Assembly: GCA_017475525.1 (NCBI GenBank)
Contig: JAFVFH010000036.1
Location: forward strand, 1-52,344
Origin: Alphaproteobacteria bacterium
GTDB lineage: Bacteria > Pseudomonadota > Alphaproteobacteria > RF32 > CAG-239
Direction: 5' to 3'
DNA: 52,344 nucleotides
The translations under genes were made by a program, and so were the position numbers. Below are positions 1 through 51,879 of the stretch, piece by piece (position 1 is the first letter of the stretch; each line of letters begins with the position of its first letter). A model generated the notes under the pieces. The model ran no database searches. It worked only from the letters and a program-made list of their open reading frames with translations, and had not been told where the DNA came from.

Positions 1-124
1 CAGGCGACAGCCGAACGCAGCAAATCTTACAAGCCAAGTGACCGAAGAGAGCGTAAGCTCTCAAGAAGAGGTTAGGAGAGGGTGACAACAATAATATCAA
101 TATGAATTTTAAGGAGTTTAACTT

Positions 125-997
125 ATGAAAAAAACAGTTTTGATTTTGAGCTTAATGGTGAGTTTTAATGCCAACGCGTGGGAGCCTTGCGGCACAGATG
201 CCGAGGGCAATACGGCAAACTGCGAATATCAAATTATTGACGGCACATTAACGATTCGCGGTGTCGGTAATAATGGCAATATCGGAAGCTGGTCTAATGA
301 TACAGGAATATTGGCGCCGTGGCGTGGAAAAAATGTCGAGAATGTTGTTATTGAAAACTCAATTAAGGATTTAGGACAAATGGGGTTTGTCTATATAAAA
401 AGCCAAAATCCGATTACTATTCCCAACAGCATAACAACAATTGGCAGTAACGCTTTTTTCGCTGCAGATACTTCGGAAATCATTATTCCTGATAGTGTTA
501 CGGATATTAGTAGTACAGCTTTTAATTGGTCTTCAATCAAAAAAATCGATATTCCGGATTCAGTTAAAATATTAGGTGGGCTTCGAGGGACAAATCTTGT
601 TGATGTTGTTGTTCCGGATTCTGTCGAAAGAATCCGTGATATCGCTTTTTCGTACTGCATAAATCTTCAAAGTTTAACAATAGGTGAAAATACTCAAATA
701 AACCAAATTTTTGATTTTTATGATGAAGAAAGGTCTGAAAATCTTGAAAATCTCAAAATCTATTGCACGGGAGATACAAAAAAATGTGATGCGAATTTAG
801 AAGCGGCAGGTTATGGCGAGCTCAAATCAATCAAGGCGACAACAAAGCAAGTCAACGGGGTGACTTATGTTTATGACAACAAGGGAAAACTTGTGACGAC
901 ATCCGGCAAGCGCAAAGAAAAGCGCATCTACTCAATAGAAGAAGCCTCTCTTGTTTCCAAAAAAACAGGCAATACTTTTAAGTTGAGATACAAATAA
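125..997 (+). CDS. Secreted BspA-type leucine-rich-repeat (LRR_5-like) protein with conserved C-terminal tail
   Basis: AAGGAG RBS precedes the ATG. N-terminal signal peptide (MKKTVLILSLMVSFNANA). CxxxC..DGTLTIRG..APW opening followed by IP(D/N)SVT.I...AF repeats. Ends in KRIYSIEEASLVSKKTGNTFKLRYK, a tail shared with 3 other ORFs here. Confidence 0.8.
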   Translation: MKKTVLILSLMVSFNANAWEPCGTDAEGNTANCEYQIIDGTLTIRGVGNNGNIGSWSNDTGILAPWRGKNVENVVIENSIKDLGQMGFVYIKSQNPITIPNSITTIGSNAFFAADTSEIIIPDSVTDISSTAFNWSSIKKIDIPDSVKILGGLRGTNLVDVVVPDSVERIRDIAFSYCINLQSLTIGENTQINQIFDFYDEERSENLENLKIYCTGDTKKCDANLEAAGYGELKSIKATTKQVNGVTYVYDNKGKLVTTSGKRKEKRIYSIEEASLVSKKTGNTFKLRYK

Positions 998-2184: not shown

Positions 2185-2514
2185 AAATTCTTCTTTACTT
2201 TTCTTGAAATATCTGCCATAATAAAAGCAGATATGAGTTGTGCTCATATTGAGCGTCTTGATAGGCGCGGGGCTGTCGAAAGCTCTTGACCATGTGCGGC
2301 GTAAGGATAACACCGCAAAATGTGCTATTCTTTTTTCTTTTTAAAAAGGTGGTGCATTATCCCCGATGAAACGGTCGGGGAGCTGGTGGCGGATGTTCAA
2401 GATATTTTATCTAAAGGCCATCAGAGTCATTTCACATGGTATGATTTTCGAACTTCCCGTCCGCTCTATTAAGAGCGGCTTCTTGTTATTTAATGATTTT
2501 TAGGAGAGAAAATT

Positions 2515-4197
2515 ATGCAAAAAAAATTTTTTATACTGCCTTTGTTTGCTGCTTTTTTACTATCATCTAATGCAAAAGCGCTTGATTGTCCTTCAGGAAC
2601 AGTGGAAGGCACGAGTTGTTGGGCTGTATATGGAAGCGCACAGGCTGCGTATTTGATTAATGGTGTTTTGACCATACCTACGAATAGTTCTTATGCTAGC
2701 GCATCAAGCACACCATGGTATGGTTCTCGAAGTAAAATTACAAGCGTTGTCGTGACAGGCGGTGGTGGCATCGGAGCTTATGCTCTTGGCGGTTTATCAA
2801 AGGTAACAAGCGTGACATTTACCGGAAATACGTCCGGTTACATTTCTAAAAATGCTTTGAATGGTGCAACGTCATTAAAGACGTTGGTAATTCCAAAGGG
2901 AATGATGATTGAAAACGGAACTTTTACAGGATCCGGTGTGACAACGGTTGTTGCAGATAGGGATGCGGGGTTTGCATCAAAATCTTTTACAGGTCTTTCT
3001 TCAAGCGCCGTTTTGTATTGCGAAAGCGGTACAACCTGTTCAAGTGATGCTAAAAAAACAGGTTTTACCGGAACCGTCCGAAGTTATAATATCGACGCTA
3101 ATGGGGTGTATAGCTATAATGGTAAATATTTTGCTTCGGCGGATAATATGGGAAAAAATAATACATCGGGTTGTAGCACTTTGAGTGCCTGCACAACAAC
3201 AGTTAAAAACAACGAAATTGCCAAAATGGTATCCGAAGGAAAATATTGCAACTCAACAAGCACATGTTCGGCTTTATGGGATATGAAATCAAACGGTTAT
3301 TGTAGCGATTATACGGCGTGCAAAAAACTTTCGGATATGAAAAATGACGGCTATTGCACGGATTACAGCGATTGCAAAACGTTAGTCGATATGGCAAATG
3401 CAAAAACGTATTGCAAAACTATAGATACCTGTAAGGCATTGGTTGATATGAAAGCAAACGGTGATTGTGCAGACTATGCCAAATGTGTGAGTTTGCAACA
3501 AATGCAAACAGCCGGATGTGAGGCCGGAACGTATGATGCTTGCCTGAGCTTGTCACAAATGGAAGGTTGTGAGGGCTATACCGAATGTGCAAGCTTGCAA
3601 CAAATGCAAACAGCCGGATGCGAAGCCGGAACATATGAGGCTTGCTTGAGCTTGTCACAAATGGAAGGTTGTGAGGGCTATACCGAATGTGCAAGCTTGC
3701 AACAAATGCAAACAGCCGGATGCGAAGCCGGAACATATGAGGCTTGCTTGAACTTGTCACAAATGGAAGGTTGCTCGGGCTATGCCGAATGTGCCAGCTT
3801 GCAACAAATGCAAACAGCCGGATGTGAGGCCGGAACGTATGAGGTTTGTTTGAAGTTGTCACAAATGCAGACAAATGGCTATTGCGAAGATTACATTTCT
3901 TGTCAAGCTTTGCAGAATATGGCAGATACGAGCGATTTGTGTTCAACGCCGGAAAGTTGTAAAGAACTGATTGATATGTCAAGCGGAACTTTGTGCAACA
4001 CGCTTGAGAGTTGTCATGAGCTTGTGACAATGGCTAATGCTGGCGAAGTATGTTCAACAGCAGAGGAATGTAAAGCGTATCTTCACCAAAAAGCTGAAGA
4101 AGAACGTGCGTCAAAAATCAAGCGTATCTATACTATTGAAGAGGCAACGCGTCTTTCTAAAGAAACCGGCAACAAATTTAAATTAAGATATAAATAA
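2515..4197 (+). CDS. Secreted protein: N-terminal BspA-like LRR region, ~16-unit Cys-rich repeat array, and conserved C-terminal tail
   Basis: AGGAG RBS and signal peptide (LLSSNAKA). About 16 units of C-x5-6-C-x2-L-x2-M-x3-5. Ends in KRIYTIEEATRLSKETGNKFKLRYK. Confidence 0.8.
   Translation: MQKKFFILPLFAAFLLSSNAKALDCPSGTVEGTSCWAVYGSAQAAYLINGVLTIPTNSSYASASSTPWYGSRSKITSVVVTGGGGIGAYALGGLSKVTSVTFTGNTSGYISKNALNGATSLKTLVIPKGMMIENGTFTGSGVTTVVADRDAGFASKSFTGLSSSAVLYCESGTTCSSDAKKTGFTGTVRSYNIDANGVYSYNGKYFASADNMGKNNTSGCSTLSACTTTVKNNEIAKMVSEGKYCNSTSTCSALWDMKSNGYCSDYTACKKLSDMKNDGYCTDYSDCKTLVDMANAKTYCKTIDTCKALVDMKANGDCADYAKCVSLQQMQTAGCEAGTYDACLSLSQMEGCEGYTECASLQQMQTAGCEAGTYEACLSLSQMEGCEGYTECASLQQMQTAGCEAGTYEACLNLSQMEGCSGYAECASLQQMQTAGCEAGTYEVCLKLSQMQTNGYCEDYISCQALQNMADTSDLCSTPESCKELIDMSSGTLCNTLESCHELVTMANAGEVCSTAEECKAYLHQKAEEERASKIKRIYTIEEATRLSKETGNKFKLRYK
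3484..3865 (+). repeat. In-frame tandem repeat, 102-bp period, ~3.7 copies, inside CDS 2515..4197
   Basis: Copies start at 3484, 3586, 3688 and 3790. Each encodes the 34-aa unit CASLQQMQTAGCEAGTYEACLSLSQMEGCEGYTE. Copies 2 and 3 differ at about 5 of 102 nt by eye. Confidence 0.9.
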
Positions 4198-6914: not shown

Positions 6915-9305
6915 ATGACAAAGAAAATGCTGATTGATGCCACCCAAAAAGAAGAAACACGTGTGGTCATCGTTGATGGAAACAAAGTTGAAGATGTTGA
7001 GTTTGAATCAACTTCCCGCAAACAAATTAAAGGCAATATATATACGGCACGAGTTATTCGTGTTGAGCCCTCATTGCAGGCCGCGTTTATCGACTACGGG
7101 GGAAATAAACACGGTTTTTTGGCTTTTAGCGAAATTCATCCGGACTACTATCATGTTTCTAATGAAGTTTTAGAAGCTTTAGATAAAGAAGTTGATGAAA
7201 TCATTGAAAATAAAAAACAATATATCCGCGAGCGTCAGGAAACGCGTGCGCGTATCAGAGCCGAGAAAAAGGCTTTGTATGAAGCGCGTAAGGCAGAAGA
7301 AGAACGCTTAAAAGCTGAAAAGGAAGAACAAAAAGAGCAGGAAACGCCGCAAGAGCAAGAAGCCTTTGAGGAACAAGGGGCAGATAATGCAACTGAGCAA
7401 GCCGCAAATACGGTCATCTTGGGCGATGAGGCTCTCGAGTCTTCAACAATAAAAGAAAATACCGATTCGGCAAATGCTGAAGAAGTGACAACGGAGCCTG
7501 CTGAAAACACTCAAGAAGAAAAACCGACTCGTGGCAAAAGAAAATACAGCCGTCGCACACAAAAAAAGAGAGCAGCAAAAGAAAGTGAAACATCGGAGGT
7601 TTCTGAGCTCAAAGTGTCGTCGGCAGATACCATAGATGAAGATGACCGTATCGATGAAGACATTGACTCCTCATCTGATTTGGATGTTGATAATGATGAT
7701 GAAGTTGATGTGCCTGATAATGTGGCAGAAGATGAATTTGAATATAGTTTTGAAGTTCAGCGCAAACTCATTCGTGCACGCAAACTGTATCATAATTCAG
7801 CTATTCAAGATGTGATTAAAGAAGGGCAGATTTTGCTTGTGCAGGTTGTCAAAGAAGAACGTGGCAACAAAGGTGCTTCGTTCACAACGTATCTTTCACT
7901 TGCAGGGCGCTATGGTGTGTTAATGCCGAACCGCATCAAATCCGGCGGTGTTTCGCGCAAAATTACCAATGCGGCAGACAGAAAGCGTTTGAAAGACATC
8001 ATCAGAGATTTGCCGCTTTCAATGGATATGTCGCTGATTATCCGCACGGCGGGTGAAGACAAAACAGAAGATGAAATTGTGCGCGATTATAACTATTTGA
8101 TCAGAACATGGAATTTGATTCGCACAAGTGCGTTGCAAAACAAGGCGCCTGCGCTGATTTATGAAGAAGGAGATTTGATCAAGCGTGCGCTTCGTGATAT
8201 GTGTTCAAATGATATTTCTGAAATTATTGTCGATGGTGATACGGCATATAAAGCCGCACGTGAGTTTGTCAAGATTTTATCACCGCAAGAGGTTAGAAAA
8301 ATCAGATGTCGCAAACCGTATGAACCGCCTGTTTTTCAGCGCTATCAGGTTGAAGCACAGCTTGATAAATTGCATAGCCCGACTGTTCAGCTCGAATCCG
8401 GCGGCTATTTGGTGATTAACCCGACAGAAGCTTTGGTCGCGATTGATGTGAACTCCGGTCGCGCCACAAAAGAGCTTGATATTGAAGAAACCGCCTTAAA
8501 AACAAACTTGGAAGCTGCTGATGAAATTGCTCGTCAGCTCAAAATGCGTGATTTGGCAGGGCTTATTGTTGTTGACTTTATTGATATGGAAGAAAACAAA
8601 AACAATATTGCGGTTGAAAAACGCATGAAAGAAGCTTTGAAAACAGATCGTGCACGTGTTCAAATTGCAAGAATGAGTTGCTTCGGTTTGCTCGAAATTT
8701 CGCGTCAGCGTATGCATTCCTCGTTTGTCGAAAGTAACTATGAAACATGTCCGTATTGCCACGGGCACGGTGTTATGCGCACAATAGAATCAGGTGCGGC
8801 ATTGATTTTGCGTGCGATAGAAGAAGAAGGTGTGAAAAACAGATTTTCAAGTCTGACCGTTTTTGTGCCGACAGATACAGCGATATATCTCTTAAATCAA
8901 AAACGCAAGAGTTTGGCAGAACTTGAAGAACGTTATCATATGTCTGTGATTATTTCGGCCGATGGCGACATTAAAAATGTGTCGGATTATAAAATCGAGC
9001 GTCAACGTCTGTCAAAAAACCAAGAAAATCAGGTTGAAACTGCACCTGCCACAACTTATGCAGATGCTGTGGCGGAAGATGAGCTTCAAATAGAGGAATA
9101 TGCACAAGAAACAGAGAATGAGGACAACTCGAATTATCGCAACAACAGGCGTTATAATCGTCGTAAAGGGCGCTTTAATAAGCGCTATAACAATAAACAA
9201 AATGAGAAAAAGGAAGCACCGAAAATTTTGTACAGCTCCGATAACATCAACTTAAACCAAGACGATAAAAAGAAAACGACATGGTGGCGCAGATTAATCG
9301 GCTAA
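6915..9305 (+). CDS. rne: Ribonuclease E
   Basis: N-terminus MTKKMLIDATQKEETRVVIVDG with S1 domain. Catalytic core motifs (LVAIDVNSG, DFIDM) and a CPxCxGxG Zn-link. Acidic/basic low-complexity insert and tail. Start moved from TTG 6897 to ATG 6915. Confidence 0.9.
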   Translation: MTKKMLIDATQKEETRVVIVDGNKVEDVEFESTSRKQIKGNIYTARVIRVEPSLQAAFIDYGGNKHGFLAFSEIHPDYYHVSNEVLEALDKEVDEIIENKKQYIRERQETRARIRAEKKALYEARKAEEERLKAEKEEQKEQETPQEQEAFEEQGADNATEQAANTVILGDEALESSTIKENTDSANAEEVTTEPAENTQEEKPTRGKRKYSRRTQKKRAAKESETSEVSELKVSSADTIDEDDRIDEDIDSSSDLDVDNDDEVDVPDNVAEDEFEYSFEVQRKLIRARKLYHNSAIQDVIKEGQILLVQVVKEERGNKGASFTTYLSLAGRYGVLMPNRIKSGGVSRKITNAADRKRLKDIIRDLPLSMDMSLIIRTAGEDKTEDEIVRDYNYLIRTWNLIRTSALQNKAPALIYEEGDLIKRALRDMCSNDISEIIVDGDTAYKAAREFVKILSPQEVRKIRCRKPYEPPVFQRYQVEAQLDKLHSPTVQLESGGYLVINPTEALVAIDVNSGRATKELDIEETALKTNLEAADEIARQLKMRDLAGLIVVDFIDMEENKNNIAVEKRMKEALKTDRARVQIARMSCFGLLEISRQRMHSSFVESNYETCPYCHGHGVMRTIESGAALILRAIEEEGVKNRFSSLTVFVPTDTAIYLLNQKRKSLAELEERYHMSVIISADGDIKNVSDYKIERQRLSKNQENQVETAPATTYADAVAEDELQIEEYAQETENEDNSNYRNNRRYNRRKGRFNKRYNNKQNEKKEAPKILYSSDNINLNQDDKKKTTWWRRLIG

Positions 9306-10624
9306 AAATCAAACTTATTTCAAGGTTGCTGTTCGGGTTTATCCTTTCGGCGGTTTTTGCTTTTAGTGCAAACGCCGCACCGTCTTTGTTGACGGATGAT
9401 GAAACCGAAACGCTGATCAAAGAGATTGTCAAACCGATTTTTAAGGTGGCGAACGTTTCATTTGATGAAAACCGCATACACCTTTTAAATGATATGAGCT
9501 TAAATGCGTTTGTGAGCGACGGCAACCACTTGTTTGTGCATACGGGCACTATCTTAAAAGCCGAAAACGTGAATGAGATTTCGGGCATTTTAGCGCACGA
9601 AACGGGGCACATAGCCGGTGGGCACATTATGCGTCAAAAGCTTAAGATTCAAGATTTGCAAACCTTGTCAGCCATTTCGCTGATTGCGGCCGGAGGTGCG
9701 GCTGTGGCGTCGGGTAGGGGAGATGCGGCCATGGCCATTGCGCTCGGCTCTCACGGCTCACTCTTAAATTCACTGATGGCCTACCAGATGACGGAAGAAC
9801 GTAGCGCCGATGAGAGTGCGGTCAAATACTTGAAAGCGCTTCATCAGTCGCCGGCAGGGTTGAAAAATTTTATGAAAACGATTCAAAAAACAAACCGCTT
9901 GTCAGGTTATGAAGAAACGCCGTATTTTAGAACACACCCGATGAGCACTGAACGTATGGCGTTTTTTGAAAAAGCCTTAAAACAAAACGGCGGCAAAACG
10001 ACCTCTCCGCTTGATAAAGATTTTGAGTTTGTAAAAGCAAAACTTTTTGCTTTTTTGATGCCTCAAGAGCAAACATTGAAAAAATACCCTTTATCAGACA
10101 AAACAGATACGGCGGTGTATGCACATGCGGTTGTCAAATTCAAACAAAAAAAGTTTGCGGAAGCTGTTTTGCTGATGAATAATTTGATTGAAAGATATCC
10201 TTCAAACCCATATTTTTATCAGCTCAAAGGTCAGTTTTTGTTTGAAAGCGGCAAGCCGGGCGAAGCCTTAAAAGCCTACCAAAAAGCTTTAGAGTTCAAA
10301 CCGAACTCAAATGAAACGATGCTTTTATATGCCGAAAGCGCGATAGAAACAAATTTAAGCAAAACAGAGCTTCAAAATGTGATAGACATTTTGAACAAAC
10401 TTCAAATAAGGCAAGAAACACCGCGTGGCTGGGAGCTTTTAGCCAAAGCCTATTATCAAAAAGGGGTTGAGGCACAAAGCCTGTATGCTTCAGCAAAATA
10501 CAGCTTTTTAATCGGCAATGTGGAAATCGCTAAAAAGCAAATTAAAAAAGCCTTGAGCCTGAATCCCTCCGAGTCGCTTAAGCTCAAACTCAAAGATTTA
10601 GAAGAAGAGCTCAAAGAAGAATAG
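9281..10624 (+). CDS. Periplasmic M48-family zinc metalloprotease with C-terminal TPR repeats (BepA/YfgC-like)
   Basis: Signal peptide (AFSANA), HETGHIAGGH (HExxH), and a TPR-like C-terminal half. The start overlaps the rne 3' end by 25 nt. Confidence 0.75.
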   Translation: MVAQINRLKIKLISRLLFGFILSAVFAFSANAAPSLLTDDETETLIKEIVKPIFKVANVSFDENRIHLLNDMSLNAFVSDGNHLFVHTGTILKAENVNEISGILAHETGHIAGGHIMRQKLKIQDLQTLSAISLIAAGGAAVASGRGDAAMAIALGSHGSLLNSLMAYQMTEERSADESAVKYLKALHQSPAGLKNFMKTIQKTNRLSGYEETPYFRTHPMSTERMAFFEKALKQNGGKTTSPLDKDFEFVKAKLFAFLMPQEQTLKKYPLSDKTDTAVYAHAVVKFKQKKFAEAVLLMNNLIERYPSNPYFYQLKGQFLFESGKPGEALKAYQKALEFKPNSNETMLLYAESAIETNLSKTELQNVIDILNKLQIRQETPRGWELLAKAYYQKGVEAQSLYASAKYSFLIGNVEIAKKQIKKALSLNPSESLKLKLKDLEEELKEE

Positions 10625-10646: not shown

Positions 10647-11360
10647 TTATTTATACCGCAATCTAAATGTATTTCCCGCCGGTTTGGAAACTTTGGTCGC
10701 TTCTTCAAGGGTATAAATACGCTTCGGAATATAGTTTCCGTTTTGCATATCCTTAAAATTGGCATATTTTTTGCCGCTAACAGAGTATCTTCCGTCAGCA
10801 TCTATAGTATATACATGAACGCCGGACGGCTTGCCTAAAGCTTTAAGACACTGCGCCGCAAGATTTTCGGGACAATAAAGCGATGCGTCAGTGTAAAAGG
10901 CATGATCGTCAATATATGTTGTCCCTTGAGGAACGGCAATATTTTCTACAGCAGAATTCATAAAAGCCGCACTGCCGATACGTGTCACCGTTTCAGGAAT
11001 GATGATACTTGTTTCCGCCAATTGGTAAAAAGCTGCTGCCCCGATTGATTCAATACCCTCTGATATCTCAATTCTTGTGATATCAAGCGCATAAGTGCCC
11101 CACGGTGCCGATGTTATATGTTGGCTTGTCCAGTTATTGTAAGGTAATACATATGAGTCAACTTGTTGAGAATAATAATCATACATATCTCCCGTGCCGG
11201 AAATCTCGAGTTTCCCATCACTGTATAGTTTCCAAGTGCAATTATCGCCGCATTTTGTCGTCGCATCATTCGGGTCTGTTTGAGCAATAATTGTTATTTC
11301 ATCGTTTGCCAGTACATTAAAACTTAAAATTAGACCCAAAATTAAAACAGTTTTCTTCAT
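10647..11360 (-). CDS. Secreted BspA-type LRR protein with conserved C-terminal tail
   Basis: Signal peptide. CGDNCTWKLYSDGKLEISGTG..APWG opening followed by LRR_5-like repeats. Ends in KRIYTLEEATKVSKPAGNTFRLRYK. Confidence 0.8.
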   Translation of the reverse strand: MKKTVLILGLILSFNVLANDEITIIAQTDPNDATTKCGDNCTWKLYSDGKLEISGTGDMYDYYSQQVDSYVLPYNNWTSQHITSAPWGTYALDITRIEISEGIESIGAAAFYQLAETSIIIPETVTRIGSAAFMNSAVENIAVPQGTTYIDDHAFYTDASLYCPENLAAQCLKALGKPSGVHVYTIDADGRYSVSGKKYANFKDMQNGNYIPKRIYTLEEATKVSKPAGNTFRLRYK

Positions 11361-11383
11361 AGTTTTTCTCCTGCATGATAAAT

Positions 11384-11543
11384 AAAAAAAACCACCTTGA
11401 AAAATCCAAAGTGGGAGCCCTAAAAACTGTCGCAGACAGACTCTCTTATTCGCCGCAAAATTGCGCTTATCTCGAGAACTCCCATTAAAAGGAGCTGTTC
11501 TGCGAAGATGTTTTTAGGAACACCATAGCCAACTCGGCTACAT
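11384..11543 (-). promoter_or_regulatory. Structured leader RNA, copy A (unclassified motif ending in an intrinsic terminator)
   Basis: Promoter TTGACT(11572-11577)-17-CAAAAT(11549-11554). Shares with copies B, C and D: two 5' hairpins, CUCC/GGAG hairpin, GAnAUAAG-hairpin-CGAAUAA, CUGU/ACAG hairpin, GCUCCC, then CCACTTTG/CAAGGTGG followed by T8. Confidence 0.7.
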
Positions 11544-11710
11544 TTTTTATTTTGCCATATTTGATTTTAAAAGTCAAAGAAAAAATATTAAAAAAAGACT
11601 TGATTTTTGCTTAAAATCGTGTATAAGCTCTTTTCTGTTAACCGGCGGAGCGGGCGAAATGGCATGCCTGACCGCTTGAATATCAATCCATTTTTATGAA
11701 GGAAGATAAA

Positions 11711-17477: not shown

Positions 17478-19064
17478 ATGACAGATGAGAAAGAAAACAG
17501 AGTAGCCAAACGAGCGCCCGACGGTTATCGCACGATTACTTATCAAGTCGATACGCTTTCCTCAAAAGCCAATGCGGCGGCATACTACCAATCAAGGAGC
17601 AATGCGATTACATCAAATTATGTTATCGGGCAGGATAACACATACAATCAAAGCGATGAAGTCTTGATTCATGAACAAAAGCATCGTAGCAATCAAGAAA
17701 AGGGGTTGTATGCCTATGCCGTCAATTCTGAACAGGCCTATAAATTGCAAATGCATGATGAAATTTCGGCAACAATGGCTTCGATTATTGCCTCGCGGCA
17801 AAAATATCTTGAAACGGGCGATATTTCTGTTTTTGATAACAACTATAATGCTAAATTTTACGCTGACGCTATTAAAAACGGAGAAGTTAATCCTTTCAGC
17901 GATAAAAAAGAAGATTTTGATAAAGAGATGCATTTAATCATGAACGGCACACAAAAATTTTGGTGTGAGAAAAAAGGTTTATCCGATACATACATGAGAG
18001 TATGTGCCACAAACGGATGTATCAGAGCCGAACTTGACGGTAAACACGCGGCTTTTTATGATGAAAATTATGAGCGTGGTAAAAAGATTTGTTATAACAT
18101 CGGCGGTGTTGACTTTACGCAATATATGGATCATGATGTTGAAATACCGGCAGAAGGGCAAAATATGCTCAATGCGAAAATCAATGATAAAATCCAGAAA
18201 ACAGGATATGAACACCTTTCGCATGAAGATTTGGCCATGTTTTACGATGTGCCGGTATATGACGGGAAAATGAGCTTGCAACAATATCAAGATTTGGTGC
18301 AACAAACACTTGCGATGAACAAGGCCTTTAACATCAATAATTCGTCTGTGTTAAGTACGGGAGAAACCGTTGCTACATATGAAAAAACAATGCTGGCTCA
18401 TGCAACGCTGAACAACGAAGGTCTTCAATATGCGCAAAGCGAATATAAAAATGCCATGGAAAGTGCCTTGCCCGTTGCTCAAAATATCACAACAGCGTTG
18501 GCCGAAGAATATAGAGATAAAGGGATAAAAGTCGGTTCAGGCGATAATGAGGCTTATCAGCAGGCTTTGCAAAAGCTGTATACATATTCATATGACAGTT
18601 CAAATATGATAAATTGTGTGCAATATACGGGAGATGTCAATGTTTCCGAAGCGTTAAATCCACAGCAAACACAATATTCATCTGCGATATCGCAGACAGC
18701 TCAGGATGTTCAAAATCTCAGCAAATGGGCGGTTAAGAAGAATCGCGTGTCTCATGTTTTGTATATGAATTTAGGCCCCGAGGTCAAAAACGAACCGGTG
18801 CGAAAAGCAAACAGAGGCTTGCCGCAATATAGAACATGGCAAGATCAAGACGGTTCACGCGTTTCCGAGGTGCAATACAGAGATGTTTTGGATATGAACC
18901 AACCGATTATTAAACAGCCCTCTGCTCAAAGTGCTGAAAACAATAAAACATTGGCAGAGCTTTTGTTGGAAAAGACCGGACGGAAAGATAATCGTTCAGA
19001 TGCGCCCGTTTCTCGTATCACAGATGCGCCTGTATACGTGGTTAAGAAAATAAACACGCGGTAA
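17478..19064 (+). CDS. Hypothetical Q/N/Y-rich protein with an HExxH motif and no signal peptide
   Basis: Own promoter (TTGAAT-17-TATAAT) and GAGGAG RBS before ATG 17478; the 17436 start in the ORF track is TTG. Contains LIHEQKHR. No family recognised. Confidence 0.6.
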   Translation: MTDEKENRVAKRAPDGYRTITYQVDTLSSKANAAAYYQSRSNAITSNYVIGQDNTYNQSDEVLIHEQKHRSNQEKGLYAYAVNSEQAYKLQMHDEISATMASIIASRQKYLETGDISVFDNNYNAKFYADAIKNGEVNPFSDKKEDFDKEMHLIMNGTQKFWCEKKGLSDTYMRVCATNGCIRAELDGKHAAFYDENYERGKKICYNIGGVDFTQYMDHDVEIPAEGQNMLNAKINDKIQKTGYEHLSHEDLAMFYDVPVYDGKMSLQQYQDLVQQTLAMNKAFNINNSSVLSTGETVATYEKTMLAHATLNNEGLQYAQSEYKNAMESALPVAQNITTALAEEYRDKGIKVGSGDNEAYQQALQKLYTYSYDSSNMINCVQYTGDVNVSEALNPQQTQYSSAISQTAQDVQNLSKWAVKKNRVSHVLYMNLGPEVKNEPVRKANRGLPQYRTWQDQDGSRVSEVQYRDVLDMNQPIIKQPSAQSAENNKTLAELLLEKTGRKDNRSDAPVSRITDAPVYVVKKINTR

Positions 19065-19141: not shown

Positions 19142-20170
19142 TTATTTATAGCGCAGTTTGAAGGTGTTGCCGGTTGGTTTGGAAACCTTCGTAGCCTCTT
19201 CAATGGTGTAGATGCGCTTGTTTTTATATCCGATGACATTACCGTCTTTATCAACGATAGTATAACTGCCGTCATTTTCATTGTAAATTTCTTTGTTTGA
19301 GCTTCTCATCGGTGCTTGTATCATGTTATATGTTCCTTTTTGATAACCTGCGGTGAGCATGTTCGCCTCACAAACGGAGATTTTTCCGGTGCAATGAATC
19401 GTAATCCCTTCCAATGGAAGATCCCTATCAAAACCATCGGCAAAGAAAATTCGACCATCGCTGTATGATATAACGTAATCGTTTGCATCAGGATATTGGG
19501 TAAAATATGCCATTGCTGCATCAACATCTTTTTGTGTGAAATAACCTGTTTCTATCCTTTCTTGTAATTGAAATTTGCCAAAATCATCGTCATAAATCAT
19601 ATATCTTGGAATTAAAATATCTTTTTCTGATGTTCTGATGGGTGTATGTTCCCCAATAGTGACATCTGTAAGTGGGACATTATAAAAGGCGTATGCTCCT
19701 ATGATCTCGACCGAATCGGGAATATCTATGCTCTGAAGCGATGAGTTTTGAAATGCATGCTCCCCAATTTTAGTTACACTATCTGGAATATTAATAGAAC
19801 TTAAAGTGTGAGATTCAAAGGCAAATTCTCCAATTTCTTTTAGTCCTTCAGGAAGATTCACACTTTGCATATGATTGTAAAATTCAATTCTATATGCAAA
19901 TGCCCCATTAGGTATTCTTTCTATACCTTTTTCAAGAGTTAAAGAAAAATTATCTTCATTAAGTTTGTTGCGAACTTCGTTATTCCAGACTTGTACAAAA
20001 TTTGCCGGTATTGTGTAAGTTATGGATGAATCATTTGGGCCGAGAATAAGTTGCCTCGTTTCGGAATTAAAAGTCCATTTGCAATTAGTGCCACAATCAT
20101 CACCCGTAAGAATTTCGGCATTTGCATGAAAAGTTGCAGCCAACCCCAAAATCAAAATCAATTTTCTCAT
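19142..20170 (-). CDS. Secreted BspA-type LRR protein with conserved C-terminal tail
   Basis: Signal peptide. CGTNCKWTFNSETRQLILG opening followed by IPDSV..IG..AF repeats. Ends in KRIYTIEEATKVSKPTGNTFKLRYK. Confidence 0.8.
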   Translation of the reverse strand: MRKLILILGLAATFHANAEILTGDDCGTNCKWTFNSETRQLILGPNDSSITYTIPANFVQVWNNEVRNKLNEDNFSLTLEKGIERIPNGAFAYRIEFYNHMQSVNLPEGLKEIGEFAFESHTLSSINIPDSVTKIGEHAFQNSSLQSIDIPDSVEIIGAYAFYNVPLTDVTIGEHTPIRTSEKDILIPRYMIYDDDFGKFQLQERIETGYFTQKDVDAAMAYFTQYPDANDYVISYSDGRIFFADGFDRDLPLEGITIHCTGKISVCEANMLTAGYQKGTYNMIQAPMRSSNKEIYNENDGSYTIVDKDGNVIGYKNKRIYTIEEATKVSKPTGNTFKLRYK

Positions 20171-20191
20171 ATTTTTTTTCCTTTACAAAAT

Positions 20192-20352
20192 AAAAACCGT
20201 TTAAGATAAACCAAAAACGGAGGAGCTAGAAAACTGCCATTGCACAGCTTGCTTTATTCGTGCGTCTGAATACGCCTTATTTCAACAACTCCTCTGCAAA
20301 GGAGCTATACAATGGATGTGTTTTCTAAACACCGCAACCATTTTGGTTACAT
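20192..20352 (-). promoter_or_regulatory. Structured leader RNA, copy B
   Basis: Promoter TTTACT(20381-20386)-17-CATAAT(20358-20363). The 5' 27 nt are identical to copy C. Same helices as the other copies, with terminator CCGTTT/AAACGG plus T5. Confidence 0.7.
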
Positions 20353-20523
20353 TCTGTATTATGGCATATCTCAAATCAAAAGTAAATAAAAAATATTGCA
20401 TTTTTTTCAATTAAATATATCATAAAAATACTTGTTTTGATTTTTAGTCACTTATTAACAATATTTATTATGAAAATCGATTGTATTATTTTAGTGCCTC
20501 AAAAAACATATTGGGGCGGAAAA

Positions 20524-36078: not shown

Positions 36079-36747
36079 ATGATGATTATCACAATTGACG
36101 GGCCGGCTGCCGCCGGAAAAGGAACTGTTTCAAAAGTATTGTCTGAGAAATATAAGCTTGCATATTTTGATACGGGGATGATTTATCGTGCTGTCGGTTT
36201 GGAGGTTGTTTTAAGAGGCTTAAACCCCGAAAATGAGGAGCATGCCTTAAATGTTGCCAAATCAATGACTTTTGAAAAGATGATGGAGCTCTCTCAAAAT
36301 CCGGATTTCAGAACAGATGTCGGAGGTTTGGCGGCTTCCAAAGTCTCAGCGATTAATTCGGTGCGTCAGATTCTTTTGAAAATGCAGCAAGATTTTGCGC
36401 TTTCTCCTGTTTTTGCAGATGGCTCAAAAGCCAACGGAGTGATTTATGACGGACGCGACACCGGAACGGTTGTTTGTCCGAATGCGGATATTAAATTTTT
36501 TGTGACAGCTTCAACCGAAGTTCGCGCCATGCGCCGCTTTAAGGAGTTTGAAAGCAAAGGCATCAAAACGACTTATGAAAAAGTTTTGGAAGATATGATA
36601 GCGCGCGACAAACGCGATTCCGAGCGAAAATCCGCGCCGATGAAACCCGCCGTTGACGCCATTATCATGGACACGTCAAATATGGATGCAAACGCTGAAA
36701 TTGAGGCTGTCTTAAAAATCGTTGAAGAGAAAATAGAGGTCGCTTAA
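36079..36747 (+). CDS. cmk: Cytidylate kinase
   Basis: ITIDGPAAAGKGTVSK, DTGMIYRA, GRDTGTVV, and RD..D..R..AP. Confidence 0.9.
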   Translation: MMIITIDGPAAAGKGTVSKVLSEKYKLAYFDTGMIYRAVGLEVVLRGLNPENEEHALNVAKSMTFEKMMELSQNPDFRTDVGGLAASKVSAINSVRQILLKMQQDFALSPVFADGSKANGVIYDGRDTGTVVCPNADIKFFVTASTEVRAMRRFKEFESKGIKTTYEKVLEDMIARDKRDSERKSAPMKPAVDAIIMDTSNMDANAEIEAVLKIVEEKIEVA

Positions 36748-36796
36748 ATAATAAAATAATGCTTGATTTTTTTCAAAGCTACACTTATGATGATAA

Positions 36797-36955
36797 GTGC
36801 AGCGGGTTGTTGCAGTGTCTAATCAACACTTAAAATCCGAGGAAACTCCTCATGAAGGGGAGTTCTTGAGATAAGCATATTTTATGGCGAATAAAAGAGT
36901 CTGTTCTCGGACAGTTGATTAGCTCCCCGTTTTGATTTTTCAAAGCGGTTTTTTT
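36797..36955 (+). promoter_or_regulatory. Structured leader RNA, copy D (upstream of the pilin-like gene)
   Basis: Promoter TTGATT(36763-36768)-17-TATGAT(36786-36791). Same helices and conserved single-stranded blocks as the other copies. Terminator CCGTTTTGA/TCAAAGCGG plus T7. Confidence 0.7.
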
Positions 36956-36976
36956 AGTAACTTTTAACGGAGAATA

Positions 36977-37627
36977 ATGATGAATAAAGAAAATGGTCGT
37001 TCTATGGTCGAAATGCTGGGTGTTTTGGCGATTGTCGGGGTATTGAGCGCAGGTGCTTTGGCAGGCTATTTGAAAGCAATGACGCAACATAAACTCAATA
37101 AACATACACAAGAAATCAGTTATCTTTTGGCAACGGCAATTTATAATCAAGACAAAATCATTGATACAAATTCACAAGAAGAGTACATATCAGCTTTAGA
37201 TGCTCTTGGAGCTTTTACATGGACGACAAATTTGCAAAATCAAGGAGAATCAACATATAAAATCATGACAGACAGCCTTCAAAATACCATATCTTTTGAG
37301 CACAGTGCAGGTAGCGGTACGGCCTTTGTTGTCATTTTAAATAAGTCTGATTTCAGGATGAAGGTGTGTTACAATTATATCAACATTTTCAAAAACCTTT
37401 CAAATGAACTCGACGTAATTTATGTAACAAGAAGTAAAACAGGACAAGCAAAAGAGAGAAATACATATATTGGCAAAACATGCACATCAGAAAAATGTTT
37501 GGAAACTATAACAAATACTGATATTTCAGAACTTTGCGGACAAGTGTGTGATGACGCGGACAGGTGTGTTTTATATGCCCTTTGGGGTTATCCTGCATCA
37601 ACAGTGGCAGGTTTGCTCGGGCAATAA
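36977..37627 (+). CDS. Type IV pilin/pseudopilin-like protein with non-canonical prepilin signal
   Basis: MMNKENG|RSMVEMLGVLAIVGVLSAGALAGY: Gly, then Glu at +5, then a hydrophobic helix. Arg at +1 is unusual. Cys-rich C-terminus. Confidence 0.6.
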   Translation: MMNKENGRSMVEMLGVLAIVGVLSAGALAGYLKAMTQHKLNKHTQEISYLLATAIYNQDKIIDTNSQEEYISALDALGAFTWTTNLQNQGESTYKIMTDSLQNTISFEHSAGSGTAFVVILNKSDFRMKVCYNYINIFKNLSNELDVIYVTRSKTGQAKERNTYIGKTCTSEKCLETITNTDISELCGQVCDDADRCVLYALWGYPASTVAGLLGQ

Positions 37628-38320
37628 GTGTTCAAAACAAACCGCTTTCAAAACACTCAAAAATTCATCTTGCGGAATATGGATTTCGTCAGGATAGGGG
37701 TTTTCAATCAAATTCAAAACCGTATCGGTCGGCACATATTGCCCCATAAAATGGCGGATAAATGCCCACTTGGCGGCATTTAGGTCAGAAACGTCGTAAC
37801 CGATTAGGCTTAAAAGCTCTTTTTCATCGGAGATTTCAACTTTTTTTGCATTTTTCAAATCATACCAAACGCCGAAGCCGTGCCTTGCAAAATATCTCCA
37901 AGGAAATGCTTTTCCGGGGTCTGCTTTTCGTATGGGCGCAATGTCCGAATGTCCTAAAATGCGTGTTTTTTTGATGTGATATTTGCGTTTCAGACGTTTG
38001 CATAGTCTGATAAGTGCTGAAATTTGCCGGCAAGGGTAGGGTTCTTGCCCAAGGCTTGAAGAACAAAGCTCAATACCGATGGAATTGTGGTTGAGATTTT
38101 CTTTTTTTTGCCAATAACTTTTGCCAGCATGCCAAGCTCGTTTTTCATCATCGACAAATTGGTAAATCTTGCCCTTTTCATCAATCATATAGTGACTGCT
38201 GACCTCATGGCGCCGAAAGCTTTCAAGTGCACCTTTCAAATCGTGTGCGATTGAATGAATCACAATCATATCGATTTTTGCATTTCGCTCATCAAAATAA
38301 GGCACATCAATTTTTTTCAT
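37598..38320 (-). CDS. N-acetylmuramoyl-L-alanine amidase, AmpD/AmiD type (Amidase_2) with C-terminal extension
   Basis: IVIHS, SSHYMIDEKGKIYQFV, RAWHAG, NSIGIEL, GHSDIAP.RKADPG. Convergent 30-nt overlap with the pilin-like ORF. Confidence 0.8.
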   Translation of the reverse strand: MKKIDVPYFDERNAKIDMIVIHSIAHDLKGALESFRRHEVSSHYMIDEKGKIYQFVDDEKRAWHAGKSYWQKKENLNHNSIGIELCSSSLGQEPYPCRQISALIRLCKRLKRKYHIKKTRILGHSDIAPIRKADPGKAFPWRYFARHGFGVWYDLKNAKKVEISDEKELLSLIGYDVSDLNAAKWAFIRHFMGQYVPTDTVLNLIENPYPDEIHIPQDEFLSVLKAVCFEHLLPEQTCHC

Positions 38321-51686: not shown

Positions 51687-51721
51687 GCTTTACATTTTCA
51701 AAATTTTATGACATAATCAAA

Positions 51722-51879
51722 AATGTAACCAAAATGGTTGCGGTGTTTCATTAACATCTATTCTACCGAAACTCCTTTTTTGAGGAGTTGGTGATATAAG
51801 GTTTCACGAATAAGCCAAGCTGTCGGTAGAACAGTTAATGAGCTCCTCCATTTTGAGTTTTTCAAAATGGATTTTTTTT
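51722..51879 (+). promoter_or_regulatory. Structured leader RNA, copy C
   Basis: Promoter TTTACA(51689-51694)-17-CATAAT(51712-51717). Hairpins AACCA/TGGTT and TGTT/AACA. AACTCC/GGAGTT. GATATAAG..CGAATAAG. CTGT/ACAG. AGCTCCTCC. Terminator TCCATTTTGA/TCAAAATGGA plus T8. Confidence 0.7.

Follow-up and report, generated by a model that had tools for sequence, protein, structure and literature searches.

A structured, terminator-bearing leader RNA, probably an attenuator, upstream of surface-protein genes and a probable type IVb-like prepilin gene in uncultured Alphaproteobacteria

Riboswitches of the cyclic di-GMP classes c-di-GMP-I (GEMM-I) and c-di-GMP-II are terminator-bearing 5' leaders that occur in many copies, sometimes in tandem, upstream of pilin, adhesin and transcription-factor genes. 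In the UpxY/UpxZ capsule loci of Bacteroides and in LoaP/EAR, leader-dependent antitermination of long operons is ensured by NusG-like proteins encoded in the locus. We have analyzed a stretch of 52,344 nucleotides (nt) from an alphaproteobacterium (GTDB lineage RF32; CAG-239), namely positions 1 to 52,344 of contig JAFVFH010000036.1 in assembly GCA_017475525.1, hereafter called the window. Four copies of one leader RNA of about 160 nt, termed here the type-1 leader and lettered A to D, precede in this window three genes for leucine-rich repeat (LRR) proteins and one open reading frame (ORF) resembling a type IV pilin gene.

The type-1 leader resembles the c-di-GMP riboswitches in being a structured leader with a terminator, present in many copies and in tandems, and associated with pilin, adhesin and regulator genes. 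However, it is Rfam-negative, and it is built from a 5' hairpin (P0) and a three-way junction closed by helices P1 and P2, with a GAnAUAAG/CGAAUAA loop. A parallel may also be drawn with the Upx and LoaP/EAR systems, since in both cases variable surface-structure genes of gut bacteria each stand behind a conserved leader with termination signals, which suggests control of the surface repertoire after initiation. The type-1 units differ from those systems in consisting of single genes, with no NusG paralog seen in their vicinity, and in their much more highly structured RNA.

Our joint best reading, which we regard as reasonably probable, is that the type-1 leaders constitute a family of attenuating RNAs with twin segments set over surface genes, and that the ORF under copy D encodes a type IVb-like prepilin. 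An earlier note on this DNA had placed copy D before a prepilin-like ORF and the other three copies before BspA-type LRR genes, and this arrangement is borne out by nhmmer and Pfam. With a profile of three sequences, the four copies are recovered with E = 1.9e-57, 9.1e-56, 1.7e-43 and 1.5e-23, and the ORFs following copies A, B and C carry signal peptides besides matches to LRR_5 (PF13306). The same note had read Gly-1, Arg+1 and Glu+5 in the ORF, which the sequence confirms and which are invariant in 38 aligned homologs.

The type-1 leader and its putative switch

The invariant core of the window leaders is GGAGTTNNNGANATAAG-N(3-30)-CGAATAA, and the core pattern GGAGTTNNNGANATAAGN{3,30}CGAATAA finds four matches in the window where none is expected (100 shuffles). 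A collection of species-representative genomes was scanned with this pattern, and all counts from the scan are lower bounds. At least 88 loci were found, about 77 of them in metagenome-assembled genomes (MAGs) of gut or rumen Alphaproteobacteria, with 11 chance matches in unrelated phyla. The type-1 copies among the matches listed belong to about 24 uncultured gut/rumen alphaproteobacterial MAGs; RUG13121 carries at least 23 copies and RUG11221 at least 15, and UBA3773 is among the further carriers. A search with nhmmer gave 91 type-1 matches, including 7 beyond the pattern scan that have small variants of the core. Loci outside the window are designated below by L numbers.

Eighty distinct type-1 copies were parsed against anchors and served as the basis of the structural analysis. 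From the 5' end, the elements follow each other in the order P0, GGUGY, P1, a short purine-rich joiner, P2, P3, P4, the loop with P5, and CUG; the 3' part then consists of the 3' strands of P2 and P1 with CA between them, a second RCUCC and the terminator. P1 (8-9 bp) and P2 (6 bp) are long-range helices which together close a three-way junction of P2, P3 and P4. P3 has the form RCUCC-loop-GGAGUU, whereas P4 is a helix of 4 bp separated from the variable hairpin P5 by an invariant internal loop, GAnAUAAG facing CGAAUAA. Altogether, about 35 junction and loop positions of the RNA are invariant.

Helix sequences vary in nearly every copy and pairing is retained. All P1 positions are canonical (8/8 or 9/9) in 58 of the 80 copies and all six P2 positions in 74 of them. 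At positions 4-8 of P1, 90-100% of the pairs are canonical as compared to 51-63% with shuffled partners, with 4-5 pair types per position. The corresponding values are 98-100% against 39-81% for P2 (2-6 pair types) and 98-100% against 47-64% for the variable positions of P4 (3-5 pair types). The P4 test is unbiased because the strands of this helix were taken at fixed offsets instead of being searched for. For P1 and P2, the 5' strand was found by complementarity within about 22 nt, a span in which a perfect 6-mer has a chance probability of about 0.07; such a P2-type 6-mer was seen in 74 of the 80 copies. Since pairing is kept despite the varied helix sequences, selection bears on the structure and not on a copied sequence.

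The position of the leader relative to its promoter and its gene is also constant. A -10-like hexamer lies 28-30 nt 5' of the conserved GGUG in 52 of 79 copies, and this fixed position predicts an RNA start just ahead of P0. Nearly all copies (79 of 80) have a terminator-like hairpin followed by a T-run, with a mean stem of 9.7 bp including 3.7 G-C pairs, and in 54 of these 79 the stem begins right after CUCC. The U-tract is 20-40 nt from the ribosome-binding site, in most copies the structured domain ends 45-65 nt before the start codon, and leader and gene have the same orientation. At L014, L060, L067 and L009, a single small helix-turn-helix (HTH) gene is preceded by a tandem of two or three type-1 leaders, all of which have terminators of their own. 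Copy D is an intact family member, with a minimum free energy (MFE) of -50.3 kcal/mol (z = -3.4).

No Rfam 15 family reached its gathering score anywhere in the window, and permissive searches with copy D (E <= 10) and copy C (E <= 1) returned only chance-level matches to unrelated families. Among these, the PyrR match of copy C scores 21.5 bits for a cut-off of 54 bits and aligns a generic hairpin and the terminator only. The type-1 leader is a structured cis-acting RNA family outside Rfam; the family is new, the kind of element to which it belongs is not. We found no paper describing it, and a bulk catalogue of structured RNAs from the gut, in which HTH-XRE genes are common beside novel motifs, names nothing comparable (PMC8040213).

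Another question is whether one of the known riboswitch classes, for instance c-di-GMP-I/II, cGAMP or c-di-AMP, includes the type-1 leader as a divergent member. Its gene associations, copy number and tandem arrangement do resemble those of c-di-GMP-I, and a crude motif scan of 0.77 Mb yielded one GGDEF-like ORF (at L022, in a related MAG), which is uninformative. However, the absence of a gathering-score match in the window, the chance level of the permissive matches and the different architecture and conserved nucleotides bring membership of these families close to refuted, and we give this explanation almost no credit. Control by a second messenger, which the earlier note had supposed beside surface-state control, stays a guess; no second-messenger riboswitch of Rfam is matched.

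The putative switch of the type-1 leader involves four segments. Segment 1 is the 5' arm of P3 (RCUCC-NN) and segment 2 its 3' arm (N'N'-GGAGUU). Segment 3 is the second RCUCC-NN, located directly after P1, with its NN opening the terminator stem, and segment 4 is the 3' arm of the terminator. Segment 2 is complementary to both segment 1 and segment 3. The two bases 5' of GGAG and those 3' of the post-P1 CUCC combine as GA/UC in 33 copies, GG/CC in 27, GC/GC in 5 and xG/CA in 11. The number of extra pairs between segments 2 and 3 averages 2.15 for cognate partners versus 1.28 for non-cognate ones, a value that none of 5000 permutations attained. The most stable fold consists of the P1-P5 domain plus the terminator: over 79 copies, mean energies are -50.3 kcal/mol for this combination, -43.2 kcal/mol with the antiterminator constrained, and -52.8 kcal/mol for the MFE.

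We infer from sequence statistics only that the type-1 leader is a four-segment attenuator, which would work as follows. In the thermodynamically favoured state, pairings 1:2 and 3:4 would let domain and terminator coexist, and transcription would terminate. In the other state, pairing 2:3 would sequester the base of the terminator stem, which is G+C-rich whereas the remainder of the stem is rich in A+U, and the polymerase would read into the gene. The 2:3 state being about 7 kcal/mol weaker and sterically awkward, the default would therefore be OFF and something would have to favour the alternative. An effector acting at the conserved junction/loop core, or on segment 1, would set the balance between 1:2 and 2:3. 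Our preferred guess is a small signalling molecule, the type-1 leader being then an orphan riboswitch with putative ligand binding. We lean towards a small ligand because of the size of the RNA, its roughly 35 invariant nucleotides, the tandem copies and a regulon made of surface proteins plus a regulator.

This proposed mechanism recalls the trp, PyrR and T-box attenuators, in that the N'N'GGAGUU segment has a choice of two partners, one upstream, whose pairing allows the terminator, and a downstream twin overlapping the terminator at its 5' base, and in that the default fold terminates. Unlike those platforms, the type-1 leader has no conserved leader peptide, T-box or PyrR-loop features, and its anti-antiterminator hairpin sits inside a large conserved three-way-junction domain. 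Three other candidates were tried and rejected. P0 does not behave as an antiterminator, its duplex energy being -6.05 kcal/mol with cognate and -6.03 kcal/mol with non-cognate partners over 79 copies; the P0 loop and 3' arm (CAAAAUGG) are complementary to the 5' arm of the terminator in the RUG13121-like clade, and no such complementarity occurs in other clades. Inspection of the GAnAUAAG/CGAAUAA loop, the only means used here, showed that its consensus positions do not fit a K-turn or a sarcin-ricin motif. As for a leader peptide of the trp type, the aligned copies on inspection contain sporadic ATGs in the P0 loop, with ORFs that differ in length or frame or are missing, and no conserved ORF.

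Another explanation would dispense with conditional control. The type-1 element could be a duplicated promoter/5' untranslated region cassette, or an independent multicopy small RNA ending at the terminator, that stabilises or marks transcripts, the genes being expressed by constitutive leaky read-through. Such a view could invoke the absence of overlap between domain and terminator in the most stable fold, a P0 hairpin that could simply shield against RNases, and paralogous gene families that may have duplicated along with their upstream regions. However, it agrees poorly with the selection on structure described above, with three unrelated gene classes found at constant orientation and spacing, and with a gap between U-tract and ribosome-binding site that leaves a separate promoter no room. 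The covariation of the alternative 2:3 pairing and the existence of tandem copies speak in the same direction, and we hold this explanation to be quite improbable.

The pilin-like protein and its processing

The ORF under copy D starts with MMNKENG|RSMVEMLGVLAIVGVLSAG and combines a short leader peptide, a hydrophobic N-terminal helix and a globular domain containing cysteines. In the 38 aligned homologs, G7, R8, S9, M10, E12, M13 and L14, the hydrophobic helix, and Cys131, Cys174 and Cys187 are invariant or nearly so. A total of 299 homologs were found at E <= 1e-3, and every one with a named organism comes from an uncultured alphaproteobacterial MAG. Many paralogs match over the N-terminal ~50 residues only; these carry matches to PilS (PF08805) and Bundlin (PF05307). 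The pilin-like gene of the window is one of many scattered single-gene paralogs.

The AlphaFold2 model (pLDDT 87.8, pTM 0.81) shows a helix of 49 residues (8-56) lying on a beta-sheet. The sole Foldseek match with a probability above 0.9 is the type IVb pilin of Salmonella Typhi (3fhu_A, probability 0.99, E = 4e-3), and the top match among PDB profiles is TcpA (E = 0.047). NCBIfam models of pseudopilins and pilins match at E = 6e-4 to 0.04 only. The mature protein, of about 209 residues, fits the size of type IVb pilins (~190 or more). On this basis, the ORF is probably a type IVb-like prepilin. Like PilS, TcpA and BfpA, it has Gly-1, Glu+5, an N-terminal helix of about 50 residues, a beta-sheet domain and conserved cysteines. 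Three traits are atypical, namely a short leader peptide, an invariant Arg+1 and a sub-threshold N_methyl score. The leader peptide counts 6-8 residues in most family members and ~17 in a few (for example L008), against 15-30 for type IVb pilins. To our knowledge, Arg at +1 is unreported in characterised pilins, and a literature search with the N-terminal peptide gave no match. Also unlike type IVb pilins, which are encoded in one operon with their assembly genes, this family consists of dozens of scattered monocistronic paralogs. Gene conversion was considered as the source of the identical N-terminus and rejected: DNA identity is 69%, and 40% of the codons are identical among identical residues, so that the N-terminus is conserved at the protein level. 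The pair L101/L091 is the one exception.

When every large ORF of the window was scanned with Pfam, housekeeping genes were found and no gene for a type IV pilus, a type II secretion system (T2SS) or a prepilin peptidase, in agreement with what had been noted before. A search for such genes further afield, which the earlier note had suggested, was answered in part in the related MAG UBA3773. This genome encodes an A24 peptidase of 231 aa (L026:3653-4348, minus strand; PF01478, 7e-18) and a T2SSE ATPase fragment (L059:58-615; PF00437, 5e-20) whose gene adjoins a leader-bearing LRR gene; the neighbourhoods inspected showed neither a platform protein nor a secretin. The peptidase lacks the N-terminal Zn-finger (DiS_P_DiS) and the methyltransferase part, which distinguishes it from type IVb systems and is compatible with Arg+1 pilins that may not be N-methylated. 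The T2SSE ATPase, of ~320 aa, is conserved in the lineage. Homologs number 541 for the peptidase and 565 for the ATPase; their NCBI names are prepilin peptidase and TadA/T2SS ATPase, and those with a named organism belong to uncultured alphaproteobacterial MAGs. The short A24 peptidase would cleave the pilin-like protein at Gly-1|Arg+1. Prepilin processing is plausible in this lineage; a classical pilus could at most be inferred from sequence.

Pilus machinery beside the pilin-like, peptidase and ATPase genes was looked for in nine neighbourhoods (P0067, P0004, P0120, P0074, P0144, P0270, P0245, P0001 and P0002) and was not found complete in any of them; all proved to be scattered single genes among housekeeping genes. 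The sole mini-cluster observed (L099:10001-12848) comprises genes for a T2SSE ATPase of 317 aa, a protein of 253 aa with no Pfam match and a Bundlin/PilS-type pilin-like protein of 263 aa; it adjoins the gene for a Toluene_X outer-membrane protein.

These data raise the question of whether the ORF encodes a fibre subunit at all. Its prepilin-like N-terminus could be an inner-membrane anchor, cleavable or not, or a pseudopilin-type module that shows or exports variable Cys-rich domains, and a classical type IV pilus would then be absent. Such a role would suit scattered singletons with no T2SSF, secretin or PilMNOP gene in the ~150 kb of neighbourhoods inspected, and an ATPase that is short and whose only companions at L099 are the 253-aa protein and one pilin-like gene. 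It would also suit the dozens of paralogs that a genome can hold, one of them with 696 aa and the same N-terminus, and an Arg+1 that is not known from characterised pilins. However, the invariant G-R-S-M-V-E-M-L with Glu+5, the hydrophobic helix and the cysteines are features required for fibre assembly, the model has a pilin-like fold whose sole significant structural match is a type IVb pilin, and the A24 peptidase and the T2SSE ATPase are conserved in the lineage. An anchor or export module is in our opinion possible but doubtful, and a type IVb-like prepilin is the assignment that we keep in what follows.

Genes served by the leaders and a second leader family

The genes downstream of type-1 leaders fall into three classes: (a) secreted LRR_5 or Cys-rich proteins, (b) pilin-like proteins and (c) small XRE-type HTH regulators. 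The genes listed behind the motif are thus not the unrelated assortment that would have refuted the earlier note, the lone exception being L028, where the leader precedes a hexapeptide-repeat transferase. In the clade of the window, classes a and b are the predominant ones. In relatives, the leader sits on more than 20 genes per genome, counting those for secreted proteins, pilin-like proteins and XRE regulators together. Class b proteins share the invariant N-terminus GRSM(V/I)EML. Besides the window, pilin-like genes under type-1 leaders were found in RUG13121 (L041, L043, L046 and a truncated one at L005), SRR873604_bin135 (L061, L075), Reindeer_2_mag_112 (L045) and at L103, that is, in at least four species. 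Class c comprises one family of XRE/Cro-type HTH proteins of 76-116 aa plus an HTH_3 protein of 160 aa. Since it is the sole class in many lineages, it is probably the ancestral partner of the leader. Members of the XRE/Cro-type family (L013:6400-6648, 6953-7210, L002, L008:3802-4053, L007, L025, L037 and others) have a C-terminal strand motif, Y.K.[LI].I.L.D.

The complete Sec-type LRR and Cys-rich proteins all end in a tag of about 25 residues, KRIY[TS][IL]EEA..SK..GN.F.LRYK*, which takes the form KRIYTIDEAN.VAGKTN.F.IRYR in relatives. It also occurs at L003, L020, L023, L031, L050, L056, L059 and L026, and the pilin-like proteins are devoid of it. The tag looks like a candidate sorting or anchoring signal and was matched to no known system.

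A second structured leader, type 2, of about 220 nt and with a terminator, is unrelated to type 1. It was first noticed in loci with no type-1 copy and features the hairpins CAGUG-AWGGAUAA-CACUG and CCCCGA...UCGGGG; its copies have no Rfam match (E <= 1). One copy lies in the window and others in RUG13121 and RUG11221; in addition to the sites of Table 1, type-2 leaders occur at L041, L044, L018 and L047. Type-2 leaders precede the pilin-like gene P0004, a PilS/Bundlin-type pilin gene, several LRR_5 genes and a gene for a Cys-rich secreted protein. The first hairpin shows compensatory changes (CAGUG/CACUG versus GCGG/CCGC in the window copy). The G-run of the third hairpin and the next 2-3 bases covary with a C-run that abuts the terminator, with twin pairs GGGGAG/CUCCCC, GGGGUA/UACCCC and GGGGUG(U)/(A)CACCCC. 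Behind the window copy, the gene at 2515-4197 (+) encodes a secreted Cys-rich protein of 560 aa that has no Pfam match and contains many CxxxC-like spacings as well as several almost identical units of ~34 residues repeated in tandem (ASLQQMQTAGCEAGTYEACLSLSQMEGCEGYTEC).

Several observations weigh against our joint reading and should be considered together. The copies are related, with many paralogs within two MAGs, so the shuffle-based significance overstates their independence. A simple OFF switch stabilised by a ligand is not obviously favoured, given that the antiterminator fold is weaker by about 7 kcal/mol; the 2:3 pairing would moreover be a sterically demanding pseudoknot if P1 and P2 remain formed, and the near-identity of segments 1 and 3 means that the covariation of 2:3 could in part be a by-product of that of 1:2 and of duplication. 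As no downstream gene is metabolic, the genes give no hint of the ligand. On the protein side, the N_methyl model of Pfam (PF07963) scores 18.1 bits, under its cut-off of 21.2, for which reason the prepilin assignment rests on motif, family alignment and fold. The likeness to 3fhu_A is moderate (TM scores of just 0.39/0.52), and no T2SSF platform or secretin was found in the neighbourhoods inspected or in a motif scan of ~0.8 Mb of loci. Across lineages, the gene found most widely behind the leader is the small XRE-type HTH gene, which does not fit a surface-only regulon. As regards the putative surface regulon of the earlier note, the link of the leader with pilin-like genes in at least four species and with many LRR/Cys-rich genes is upheld; this commonest partner is no surface gene.

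Finally, a 94%-identical ortholog of the ORF, found in two samples (L101 and L102), has a type-2 leader. When L101:1-1321 and L102 are compared with positions 36700-37627 of the window, DNA homology begins at the start codon and the upstream gene differs. The first ~100 nt of the L101 gene are identical to those of the paralog P0004 (L091:9300-10700), whereas its remaining part shows 97-100% identity with the window gene. The L101/L102 gene would accordingly be a mosaic whose 5' regulatory module was swapped; a chimera of the assembly is an unlikely alternative. The wiring would therefore be exchangeable, and membership of the type-1 set would not be fixed for a single gene. On the other hand, both families serve the same gene classes and interchange, which strengthens the idea of a common control layer of surface genes, to which the type-2 leader apparently belongs.

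The effector of the type-1 leader could also be a protein. In such a protein-dependent attenuation, a dedicated RNA-binding protein would shift the 1:2/2:3 balance, as PyrR, TRAP and BglG-type antiterminators do. The candidates are the small XRE protein borne by the leader, which would then be autoregulatory, and a NusG-like factor giving a terminator-resistant polymerase. A default fold that terminates suits an activator, and many lineages carry the leader only on one to four small HTH genes of one family. A pilin-like gene is found 0.2-1.6 kb from a leader-HTH unit at L008, L017, L014, L060 and L067, and two unrelated, interchangeable leader families would fit a shared protein layer as well as two ligands. 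However, a large three-way-junction RNA with so many invariant positions is more typical of metabolite-binding RNAs, XRE HTH domains normally bind DNA, and the small HTH protein of the leader family was not seen in the examined parts of RUG13121, RUG11221 and the window. The sub-threshold PyrR match, limited to generic elements, brings no support either. We judge a protein effector rather unlikely and retain a small molecule as the preferred one.

An even broader reading, which we consider tentative, is that two orphan riboswitch-like leader families control the variable surface proteome of gut and rumen Alphaproteobacteria after transcription initiation. This proteome would comprise Sec-exported LRR and Cys-rich proteins with the RIYT...LRYK tag and dozens of Arg+1 type IVb-like pilins. 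The two families would share a twin-segment antiterminator logic and be exchanged by recombination near the 5' end of genes. They would respond to one or two signals, for example a new second messenger or a host-derived compound, and the small XRE regulators would be the ancestral output.

Other features of the window and biological meaning

The coordinates are collected in Table 1. The convergent Amidase_2 gene (N-acetylmuramoyl-L-alanine amidase) is outside the regulated unit. Its 3' end and that of the pilin-like ORF share exactly 30 nt (37598-37627), as had been reported in the earlier note, and the overlap is kept at the ortholog loci L101 and L102. A fifth LRR_5 gene, with the C-terminal tag, occupies positions 125-997 (+), and the 124 nt upstream of it, which are all that the window holds, contain neither a type-1 nor a type-2 leader. 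Short G+C-rich inverted repeats (for example GAATCCTCCCCCTTGAGGG...GGAGGGGTGA) are found between or beside leaders and genes at several loci and may be elements of the repetitive extragenic palindromic (REP) type.

Table 1. Positions of the leaders, their elements and neighbouring features (window coordinates unless an L number is given)
Feature	Position	Strand	Basis or remark
Sigma-70-like promoter	36763-36791	+	-35 TTGATT 36763-36768, 17-nt spacer, -10 TATGAT 36786-36791
Copy D transcript start (predicted)	~36797	+	
Type-1 leader copy D, with terminator	36797-36955	+	nhmmer and sequence
Copy D structured domain	36797-36926	+	parse of 80 copies and covariation
Copy D P0 hairpin	~36798-36815	+	
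Copy D (A)GUGU	36815-36819	+	
Copy D P1	36819-36827 with 36914-36922	+	
Copy D P2	36836-36841 with 36906-36911	+	
Copy D P3	36844-36851 with 36857-36864	+	
Copy D P4	36864-36867 with 36895-36898	+	
Copy D conserved internal loop	36868-36875 opposite 36888-36894	+	GAGAUAAG opposite CGAAUAA
Copy D P5 hairpin	36876-36887	+	
Copy D CUG; CA; GCUCC	36901-36903; 36912-36913; 36922-36926	+	
Copy D segment 2	36857-36864	+	GG+GGAGUU, 3' arm of P3; partners 36844-36851 or 36921-36928
Copy D segment 3 with terminator	36921-36955	+	AGCUCCCC; twin of P3 5' arm, overlaps terminator base
Copy D intrinsic terminator	36927-36948; U7 36949-36955	+	stem CCGUUUUGA/UCAAAGCGG
Ribosome-binding site of pilin-like ORF	36969-36972	+	GGAG
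Pilin-like ORF, 216 aa	36977-37627	+	
Amidase_2 gene, convergent	37598-38320	-	Pfam
Type-1 leader copy A	11383-11546	-	5' of LRR_5 gene 10647-11360(-), E = 2e-13 (Pfam)
Type-1 leader copy B	20187-20353	-	5' of LRR_5 gene 19142-20170(-), E = 2e-22 (Pfam)
Type-1 leader copy C	51721-51879	+	5' of LRR_5 gene from 51929(+), cut by window end, E = 1e-9 (Pfam)
Type-2 leader	2263-2488	+	nhmmer E = 8e-36, profile of 8 type-2 copies; 5' of Cys-rich repeat gene 2515-4197
Type-2 leaders at other loci	L091:9572-9789; L089:2071-2294, 9121-9340, 18516-18300; L098:1236-1444, 9151-8944; L101:294-508		
Tandem type-1 leaders	L014:3555, 3771; L060:3107, 3329, 3553; L067:1087, 1306; L009:3538, 3320		
C-terminal tag	923-997(+), 4123-4197(+), 10647-10721(-), 19142-19216(-)		
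Inverted repeats	L091:9780-9960; L089:1840-1960, 18200-18300; window 1-90		

One leader standing before pilin-like, LRR, secreted and XRE genes would make all of them answer to one input, and one signal probably switches the leader-bearing surface proteins together. If our reading is true, the type-1 leader would represent a new orphan class of riboswitch-like or attenuator RNA with an unusually high number of copies per genome, at least 23 in one MAG. Instead of metabolic genes, its regulon would comprise surface and secreted proteins, a pattern that until now has pointed to signalling ligands. The large family of Arg+1 pilin-like proteins, together with an A24 peptidase with no methyltransferase domain, would extend the range of substrates known for prepilin processing. 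Comparative and biochemical work would have at its disposal two independent RNA families with a shared logic. They would give a handle on how uncultured and barely studied gut and rumen Alphaproteobacteria choose the adhesin-like and pilin-like proteins that they display.

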